From contig OZ024752.1 in assembly GCA_964016885.1 (NCBI GenBank), forward strand, positions 28,086,001 through 28,150,000: a stretch of 64,000 nucleotides of DNA, given 5' to 3'. Positions 58,795-59,697 of the stretch are shown piece by piece (the first letter of the stretch is position 1; every line of letters begins with the position of its first letter). The stretch is from Eledone cirrhosa. Lineage: Eukaryota. Below the pieces are notes generated by a model. That model searched no databases and was not told where the DNA came from. It saw only the letters and a list, made by a program, of their open reading frames with translations. Made by a program: the position numbers and the translations under genes.

Positions 58795-59697
58795 AACGGA
58801 AAAAGTGAAACGAAATTTGATTTCCCACTCGTAGTACGGCTGTTACTTAAATATAAGTATGTACACGTACATACATATATGTATACAGACGTACAGTAGT
58901 ATGTATATATATATATATATACATACATACACACATATATATATATATATCTGTACGTATGGATTCACAGAACATTTATTATAATGTTCGGTGTGTTTGT
59001 AAACAAACATCCCGTATTAAACCGTAGTGTCTAGCAACCATCGTTGCTCGTTTGTTCAACACTGACAAAGGAACGCTGTACTAGTTTCAAGCTTATTAGC
59101 TATTGTCAGCAACGTATACCTTCCTGCCAAATTGTTGAACGTATATACTTACCTTATGCATATTAACGGCTGAGTAGCCCAATTTGCATATCGAGTGGGT
59201 TAATCGGCCGGGTGCACCGACAAGGTAACAACCGTACTAAGAGTGGGAAATGAAATTTCGTTTCATTTTTTCCATTTATCGTTTTTGGTGCACCCGGCCG
59301 ATTAACCCACTCGATATGCAAATTGGGCTACTCAGCCATTAATATGCATAAGGTAAGTATATACGTTCAACAATCTGGCAGGAAGGTATACGTTGCTGAC
59401 GATAGCTAATAAGCTTGAAACTAGTACAGCGTTCCTTTGTCAGTGTTGAACAAACGAGCAACGATGGTTGCTAGACACTACGGGTAATACGGGATGTTTG
59501 TTTACAAACACACCGAACATTATATTAATTGTTCGGTGAATCCATACGTACATATATATATGTGTGCATGTATGTATATATATATATACATACTACAGTA
59601 CGTATGTATACATATATGTATGTAGGTGTACATACTTATATTTAAGTAACAGCCGTACTAAGTGTGGCAAATGAAATTTCGTTTCATTTTTCCGTTC
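58795..59697. mobile_element. Small retrozyme-like element (family M): two monomers of about 420 bp in inverted orientation
   Basis: 58795-59218 is the reverse complement of about 59287-59697; the plus copy has terminal direct repeats 59225-59277 / 59647-59697; fragment at 40375-40412. Confidence 0.85.
59391..59431 (+). ncRNA. Minimal type I hammerhead motif (mutated mirror copy at 59074-59114)
   Basis: cgttg-CTGACGA-tagct-aata-agct-tGAAAC-TA-GTA-cagcg. Confidence 0.83.

Follow-up and report, generated by a model that had tools for sequence, protein, structure and literature searches.

A highly repeated hammerhead-bearing unit of Eledone cirrhosa is probably a non-autonomous PLE of the non-LTR retrozyme kind

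In a stretch of 64,000 nucleotides from Eledone cirrhosa (contig OZ024752.1, positions 28,086,001 to 28,150,000; hereafter the window), two short units with hammerhead ribozyme motifs lie head to head between microsatellites, and the question raised by this locus is what kind of genetic element such a pair represents. The window has a GC content of 29%, a low-complexity share of 32% by mask, about a third, and LINE-type RT ORFs. In an earlier note, the pair (family M) was described as retrozyme-like monomers with the same architecture as a diverged family L, and a functional class of small-RNA replicons was proposed. Based on the insertion layout, traits of Hydra-clade Penelope-like elements (PLEs), the presence of other head-to-head hammerhead families, and a 2026 preprint, M is probably a highly repeated non-autonomous PLE of the non-LTR retrozyme kind.

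From left to right, the M locus consists of a (TA)n-type microsatellite (58104..58796), an inverted copy running from 59219 to 58795, a few bases, a 53-nt copy (59225..59277, plus strand), the full 421-nt unit (59278..59698, plus strand), and a second (TA)n-type microsatellite (59698..59781), so that the outer ends of both arms lie in their left and right (TA)n targets. The layout is that of a partial tandem plus an inverted 5'-truncated copy: the pseudo-LTR-like 53-nt piece is a 5'-truncated copy of the unit's 3' end, and the near-full inverted arm (58795..59219, minus strand) is a sense copy of the unit without about the first 8 nt, with its 3' end in (TA)n. This arm starts at an 8-bp palindrome, GGTGCACC (59211..59218), read from the sequence at the inversion junction. 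The inverted pair of the earlier note was recovered as a self-palindrome spanning 58710-59778, the arms of which are 90% identical over all 511 columns and 96.9% identical across the 260-nt non-repetitive part, and the direct repeats claimed to bound the plus monomer were located at 59225-59270 and 59646-59691 (93%, spacing 421), with 5 mismatches in 53 nt. Each pair among the three copies of the terminal 53 nt has five differing sites, two of them family-polymorphic. A third M-related piece, a 3'-end stub with 89% identity over 37 nt (40375..40411, plus strand), is also embedded in a microsatellite. The M unit contains no ORF of at least 80 aa, neither unit holds an ORF, and M fits the description of a 150-450 bp non-coding unit with a type I hammerhead ribozyme and no LTR, PBS, or PPT, L (467 nt) lying slightly above that range.

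The claimed hammerhead is present in the plus arm as a type I domain with an extended stem I (59366..59450, plus strand), the core of which lies at 59396-59402 (CTGACGA) and 59417-59426 (GAAACTAGTA), and the predicted fold agrees with the stem I pairing that had been described. With CTGACGA, GAAA, and GTA, the plus arm conforms to the type I core rule (CUGANGA, GAAA, NUH), and helices I, II, and III surround the core with helix I open. Stem I has 6 bp (7 in one variant), stem II has 4 bp with a U.U at its base, and helix III is the palindrome ACTAGT (59420-59425, plus strand), with cleavage predicted after 59426. The hammerhead of the inverted arm (59073..59115, minus strand) has the core CTGACAA and departs from the rule by G8A at 59104. 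G8A breaks the C3-G8 pair, and on established hammerhead core chemistry the inverted-arm ribozyme is predicted to be inactive. In the folding calculations, helix III has a pairing probability of 0.0 in the M monomer and the dimer duplex reaches -4.8 kcal/mol, which models the M hammerhead as the dimer-requiring kind whose monomer cannot form helix III; a dimer-type hammerhead is described in PMC4209133 and is also known from the repeats of axolotl and newt (PMC7229834). The hammerhead scan found one ribozyme per unit, of single polarity, in both M and L, and no two same-strand ribozymes flanking a monomer at either locus. With one ribozyme per strand, the M locus cannot release a monomer in cis, and it is most likely a dead-end daughter copy.

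A relaxed hammerhead scan gave nine matches in the 64-kb window versus none in each of five shuffles. In Rfam, the window gave no match at the gathering score, and no hammerhead was found among the best 150 of 1014 E-value rows, where miRNA and hairpin models lay over microsatellites and palindromes. The M sense strand folds better than the antisense strand (-137.8 vs -123.9), and pairing within the ribozyme is reflected in the copies found in sequencing runs. The stem I pair 59393/59429 varies among T.G, A-T, and G.T at matching frequencies across M copies, its two positions being changed at 93% and 92% in first-mate-plus reads, 44% and 46% in first-mate-minus reads, and 38% and 56% in run X1, and in L the two sides of the stem II pair 39305/39294 switch at 71% and 73%.

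Family L comprises a 467-nt unit (38982..39448, minus strand) with its hammerhead core at 39313, a 105-nt partial tandem (39449..39553, minus strand) that repeats the 3' end of the unit without a mismatch, and an inverted piece of 68 nt (39555..39622, plus strand) that crosses the unit junction and ends 49 nt beyond it in (TA)n like a tail. An insertion plan with two fixed ends fits L, with its 49 nt past the junction, and was rejected for M, which it does not fit. The global alignment score of M against L was 229.5 versus 42.4 +/- 11.7 for shuffled sequences, none of the 300 shuffles scoring as high, which indicates that L is a homologue of M and not a convergent class (z = 16). By part, z was 8.3 for the region 5' of the ribozyme, 5.7 for the terminal part, and 2.4 for the region after the ribozyme. 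In the same test, the reverse complement and two copies of family J had z below 0, and a 467-nt stretch of family K reached z 3.4, attributed to the shared core and microsatellite.

M folds with z -6.3 relative to shuffles (z -3.6 without the microsatellite-like part) and L with z -10.4, and the hairpin order is the same in both. The predicted chain of about ten hairpins in M includes a hairpin with an octamer, ATGCAAAT, on its 5' strand (59315..59350), a 6-bp hairpin (59457..59472) in which three of the five pairs common with L are changed on both sides, a hairpin with a TTTA loop (59495..59510), a 9-bp hairpin of the form CACCG...CGGTG (59511..59538) whose L counterpart is CACTG...CAGTG, a microsatellite-like long stem with a 10-nt bulge (59545..59632) and the same layout in L, a short hairpin CTTA...TAAG common with L (59635..59646), and a terminal hairpin with a T-run (59667..59698), all on the plus strand. 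At the last of these, the fixed 3' end meets (TA)n, and the family junction reads TTTA/TCG. The TGTTTAC, microsatellite-like segment, and terminal hairpin with T-run that had been listed for M were all found there and follow the same order in L, TGTTTAC (59499-59505) consisting of the TTTA loop and its closing pairs.

Covariation was counted on sequence-only pairwise alignments combined with independent folds, pairwise alignments being used because the MAFFT alignment misplaces the TTTA hairpin. Fifty-five of the 125 aligned M pairs are also paired in L; 11 of these shared pairs are changed on both sides, 5 on one side, and 3 belong to the non-catalytic core pairing. Of the 20 M pairs changed at both positions, 16 are still paired in L, as against 8.8 under the null (p 0.0014). 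When the count was repeated in both directions with three gap settings, p ranged from 0.0014 to 0.051 for doubly changed pairs and from 0.0006 to 0.15 for all changed pairs; counting from L to M, or with the other gap settings, gave a weaker signal. The covariation between L and M is real but modest and rests on two families. Reads provide an intermediate: a subfamily has the ribozyme domain in common with M but is flanked on the 5' side by L-like sequence and forms another hairpin behind 59454. The shared module order that the earlier note had read as the signature of a class is confirmed in L and M, together with its conserved structure; as a class-wide signature it did not stand, because the end-to-end alignment and the intermediate subfamily point to common descent, and J does not share the order. 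The conserved hairpin chain is likely a cis signal read by a PLE protein.

The octamer was found where it had been placed on the plus arm (59316-59323) and also at 59189 on the inverted arm (59182..59189, minus strand). Between L and M the octamer strand shows no difference, as against two differing sites in the partner strand, and no octamer variant occurs among the best 40 rows of M read variants. Invariant beside a varying partner strand, the octamer may be read as sequence and is a candidate promoter motif. It occurs 13 times in the window versus 5.4 expected from base composition. As had also been claimed, an octamer lies at 55933-55940 in family J, but only one of three J copies has it, the others reading ATATGCAT, and it points the opposite way from the J ribozyme, a minus-strand motif; between J and L or M no similarity was found. 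The "TATA box" downstream of the octamer lies within a hairpin in L, and a Pol III reading common to L and M was rejected, M having no internal run of four T and L having three. The promoter of newt satellite 2 studied by Coats in 1994 reportedly includes an octamer. M shares with satellite 2 the nature of a hammerhead repeat and has an octamer upstream of its ribozyme; in contrast to the newt promoter, the M octamer sits in a conserved hairpin stem and is a putative promoter only. The newt hammerhead repeat has been described as having an snRNA-type internal promoter (PMC2220036). As a separate observation, the J hammerhead-like motif (36057-36696 and 55642-55950) has an unusual core, CCGAAGA (U4C), in all three copies, an 8-bp stem II, and a self-complementary helix III, and it occurs as a head-to-head pair whose short arm halts at an internal TATATA.

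M is not single-copy, and both M and L are highly repeated in public DNA sequencing runs. Parts of M were found in 20 of the 24 runs listed, the 12 rows with a share of at least 0.27 representing nine organism labels and eight studies. Reads and contigs placed on 59190-59548 of M (359 bp) came from runs X22, X1, X4, and X7; rows X13-X21, whose shares were small, do not enter the counts. The RAD run X22 contained 36,612 M reads among 12,467,656, and M contigs numbered 8,090 in X1, 46 in X4, and 9 in X7; with two AATT sites in the M unit, the number of RAD reads is biased, and these read and contig figures are not a copy count. Summed contig depth in X1 was about 1.15 million over the M body and about 0.4-0.55 million for most of L, which likewise is not a copy number. 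Left of 59225, other M copies continue into the 3' part of the unit itself, as seen in 912 reads and 101 contigs; in X1, 53 contigs end in (TA)n at 59279; and in 11,085 reads another tail follows behind 59454. L was represented by 3,354 reads in X22, 1,056 contigs in X1, and 1 in X11; run X9 yielded no L contig, a blank that does not mean absence. The 467-nt head-to-tail joint of L was present in 914 reads with 99 starts, and also in X11. A same-strand tandem array with two hammerheads is absent at the M and L loci, and the family-wide junctions come from 150-nt reads, which are too short for full dimers. The two outcomes that the earlier note had named as refuting, a lack of structural covariation between L and M and single-copy status, were both contradicted by the data, and the description of M as retrozyme-like, of the same architecture as L, and under functional constraint holds.

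Ten of the 15 M joints listed (of 28) are strand switches, at varied unit positions; four of these ten have a single read start, and orientation is absent from the joint table. These joints bear on the suspicion that the inverted M pair is a fold-back artefact of assembly or library preparation, which would not be out of place in a window with 32% low-complexity sequence and many palindromes. The arms, however, differ at 3 of 187, 3 of 62, and 6 of 81 sites by segment, the minus arm has family-common alleles at 59338, 59525, and 59529 that the plus arm does not have, and the strand-switch joints occur in independent raw reads away from restriction sites, so that an artefact is extremely improbable. 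Minority alleles common to both arms, such as 59517 A, are also present.

In X22, about 113 L reads with one start represent a haplotype that is mostly missing from X1 and carries T>C changes at 39211-39215, 39223, 39229, and 39230, which amount to a cluster of A>G changes when read on the ribozyme strand; the L places listed in X22 include 23 T>C versus 8 A>G. The cluster, in the interval 39191-39338 of this single haplotype, possibly reflects ADAR-edited RNA copied into DNA. It also bears on whether L and M could be DNA elements of the non-autonomous Helitron/Helentron type, with hairpins formed in single-stranded DNA and a captured ribozyme-like motif. Helitrons and Helentrons have internal microsatellites, a 3' terminal hairpin, and AT-rich targets, features that L and M would match. 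The clustered sense-strand A>G changes, the covariation of hammerhead stems with G.U pairs tolerated, and the better fold of the sense strand nevertheless argue against such an origin, as do the 3'-end stubs and head-to-head truncated copies, which are retroelement traits, and a Helitron-type element is considered highly improbable.

In the accounts of PMC8557442 and PMC3846280, a PLE insertion takes the form of a partial tandem truncated at its 5' end, next to which lies an inverted truncated copy, with an optional tail of 30-40 bp and with palindromes where copies meet head to head; opposite-strand hammerhead pairs 100-700 bp apart have been noted as truncated PLEs (PMC4209133). The corresponding traits are found here: a partial tandem forming a pseudo-LTR of 53 nt in M and 105 nt in L; an adjacent inverted 5'-truncated head-to-head copy at M, with strand-switch joints at other loci; and a fixed 3' end in targeted microsatellites, both M arms, the stub, and the L end lying in (TA)n-type repeats. 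Families J, K, and Q also form head-to-head hammerhead copies in simple repeats, the long arm in J and K reaching a shared end and the short arm halting early, twice at an internal TATAT. Canonical hammerheads and insertion into (TA)n are traits of Hydra-clade PLEs, as are a CxCX5C linker and the motifs CxxC and CxH (PMC8557442). The window itself contains the frameshifted 3' part of a PLE ORF (46185..47229, plus strand) with the Hydra-clade motifs, namely the CxCX5C linker, a GIY-YIG-like domain, CxxC, and CxH, and its atlas neighbours include a GIY-YIG cluster (23% of members); Pfam gave nothing useful on this fragment, and an initial assignment to Neptune was dropped for the Hydra clade on the basis of the motifs. 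This fragment represents a candidate helper type for M. It lies within a region bounded by a 406-bp inverted repeat of 99.5% identity (45751-46156 / 50358-50763, the whole spanning 45751-50763).

A further explanation is that the L and M units are no separate element but terminal repeats of an autonomous PLE left behind by 5'-truncated insertions. PLE insertions are mostly 5'-truncated and carry a hammerhead in the pseudo-LTR (PMC8557442, PMC4209133), and subfamilies part from M just beyond the ribozyme domain, at 59454 in the 11,085 reads mentioned above. Against it, the unit's 3' end joins its own 5' start with no ORF between at the M locus, in L, and in the 914 L reads, and the units themselves are free of ORFs. 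Such an origin is quite unlikely. Counting against M as a non-autonomous PLE, no similarity was detectable between the Hydra-like fragment and L/M DNA (best z 2.4, with positive controls at 12.7 and 6.5), and the comparison, which included a single PLE fragment, turned up no autonomous PLE whose terminal repeat resembles L/M. Nor did L/M show similarity to J, K, the PLE flanks, the 51275 family, or the palindromes at 10829 and 61760. In a preprint on vertebrate elements, animal retrozymes are derived from PLE pseudo-LTRs (bioRxiv 10.64898/2026.07.22.740005), which agrees with the interpretation of M as a non-autonomous PLE.

Beyond anatomy, repetition, and covariation, a possible mechanism may be proposed. 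M would be a parasitic mini-retrotransposon whose RNA is probably reverse-transcribed into TA microsatellites by enzymes that an autonomous PLE supplies, the helper clade most likely being Hydra. Multimeric RNA would be transcribed from tandem source copies or by read-through, after which two hammerheads could pair through the palindromic helix III and cleave, two copies being invoked because the monomer is predicted to be unable to form helix III. A GIY-YIG endonuclease could then nick (TA)n, and the nick would prime reverse transcription at the UUUAU site of the unit. Synthesis would cover one unit plus 53 nt, either on a multimer, on a circle, or by a template jump. Finally, the cDNA end may self-prime at GGTGCACC, or a second priming may occur at the other end of the break, to form the inverted arm. 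A single circular template does not cleanly account for the differences among the 53-nt copies, and neither does a pure fold-back; the arms share minority alleles and yet have termini differing at two family-polymorphic sites, which cuts both ways on the mode of priming. Classical twin priming was set aside since the arms overlap in sequence, which needs a multimeric or circular template; target-site duplications are unreadable in (TA)n.

The possible use of a circle raises the alternative that L and M replicate at the RNA level, as small viroid-like circles, with the genomic copies as by-products. The strongly structured units (z -6.3 and -10.4), the more-than-unit-length copies together with the family-wide head-to-tail junction, which suit a circular template, and the retrozyme circles documented in coral, mussel, and axolotl (PMC7229834) speak for it. 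A viroid-like replicon would be expected to have ribozymes in both polarities or minus-strand intermediates of replication, and the hammerhead scan found one polarity per unit; insertions begin at a fixed site far from the cleavage site and follow the PLE layout; and hammerhead patterns of the L/M type gave no matches in metagenome contigs (two scans) or viral contigs. For metazoan retrozymes, PMC7229834 treats RNA-RNA replication as no more than a possibility. RNA-level replication is very unlikely, and the proposed small-RNA replicon class is not supported, there being one ribozyme polarity, no hammerhead-to-hammerhead monomer at the M locus, and a PLE-type insertion geometry. Circles as an intermediate of retrotransposition have about an even chance and are compatible with copying by a PLE.

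Metazoan non-LTR retrozymes have been described from coral, mussel (350-390 bp), and axolotl (330/350 bp), including newt satellite 2 (PMC7229834). M resembles them in its few-hundred-base non-coding unit, single type I hammerhead, AT-richness, self-pairing, and head-to-tail junction; its helix III of one pair plus a palindromic tetraloop is like that of HHR_Amex1, and the U.U at the base of helix II is like that of HHR_Amex2 (PMC7229834). In contrast, L and M occur as dispersed head-to-head insertions with a partial tandem only and are known here from DNA alone, and with 421 and 467 nt they slightly exceed the range that PMC7229834 gives for invertebrate retrozymes (170-400 nt). With the endonuclease-bearing Hydra-clade PLEs (PMC8557442) and PLE structures described in PMC3846280, the units share the partial tandem, the inverted 5'-truncated copy, the junction palindrome, the tail-like extension (in L), the canonical hammerhead, and the (TA)n target; they differ in having no ORF and, for M, in arms that end at the same site without a tail. 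The vertebrate retrozymes of the preprint (bioRxiv 10.64898/2026.07.22.740005) are alike in the proposed origin and helper and in occurring as dispersed monomers and dimers. There, the link to PLEs was drawn from co-occurrence and pseudo-LTR homology, whereas here, in a mollusc, it is drawn from the geometry of the insertions, and structural conservation extends beyond the ribozyme; one of nine predicted elements cleaved in that study.

L and M are probably a cephalopod addition to the known non-autonomous PLE/non-LTR retrozyme kind and do not define a new replicon class. Cephalopod retrozymes were not described in the literature searched; the main text of PMC7229834 is silent on them, and its supplement may list ones from molluscs or cephalopods. 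The available text of the O. vulgaris annotation lists 31 PLE families as recently active and 893 SINE families as unclassified, with no occurrence of the word "ribozyme", and units of the L/M type may sit unnamed in repeat libraries. Hammerhead retrozymes are hereby extended to cephalopods, whose repeat annotations, in the text available, make no mention of ribozymes, and insertion geometry now adds to the evidence that ties retrozymes to PLE-type insertion. According to PMC8557442, no in vitro system for PLE retrotransposition exists. As short units free of ORFs, diverged from each other yet alike in their conserved hairpin chain and fixed end, L and M offer a compact substrate and a list of cis elements for mutation. 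A more far-reaching reading, which is rather unlikely, is that the L/M unit could be a minimal structured RNA template of a telomerase-related PLE RT, with about ten compensated hairpins, a UUUAU site pairing with nicked (TA)n as a telomerase template does, and an octamer promoter, and that head-to-head dsRNA would be hyper-edited by ADAR and written back into the genome, so that editing would drive the evolution of the units.

Several other elements were observed in the window. Family K (13250-14270 and 23952-24260) consists of head-to-head hammerhead copies with the helix III palindrome ATGCGCAT, its long arms ending at an identical site in both loci and its short arms stopping early. An inverted pair at 61760-62728 has a hammerhead-like motif with a long loop II insertion and the helix III ACCATGGT, one arm reading CTGAAGA at about 62383 and the other CTTAAGA. 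Another inverted pair at 10829-11388 contains a possible minimal hammerhead with a U3-A8 core variant (TTGAGAA) and the helix III ACGTACGT, which was recognized by eye and failed the scan, and an AT-rich hammerhead-like match at 28051 (minus strand; CTGATGA, helix III ATATATAT) may be due to chance. Near-identical inverted and direct repeats lie in (TA)n at 51113-52866 and 45233-45752, with a GC-rich 84-nt palindrome at 52699-52781; no ribozyme was recognized in this family. A 1121-aa open stretch at 17262-20624 (minus strand) encodes an endonuclease, RT, and zf-RVT (LINE ORF2), with ORF-like stretches upstream, and further LINE RT pieces occur at 33004-35508, 15718-16380, and 57500-58100. A dispersed 180-nt SINE-like repeat is present in six copies of 76-89% identity (691-872, 1512-1678, 4745-4940, 6770-6952, 28187-28373, and 44450-44639). 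Finally, an S-crystallin exon at 42707-42784 (octopus match PDB 5b7c, 22 residues, E 6e-10) puts the elements in or near a cephalopod crystallin locus.
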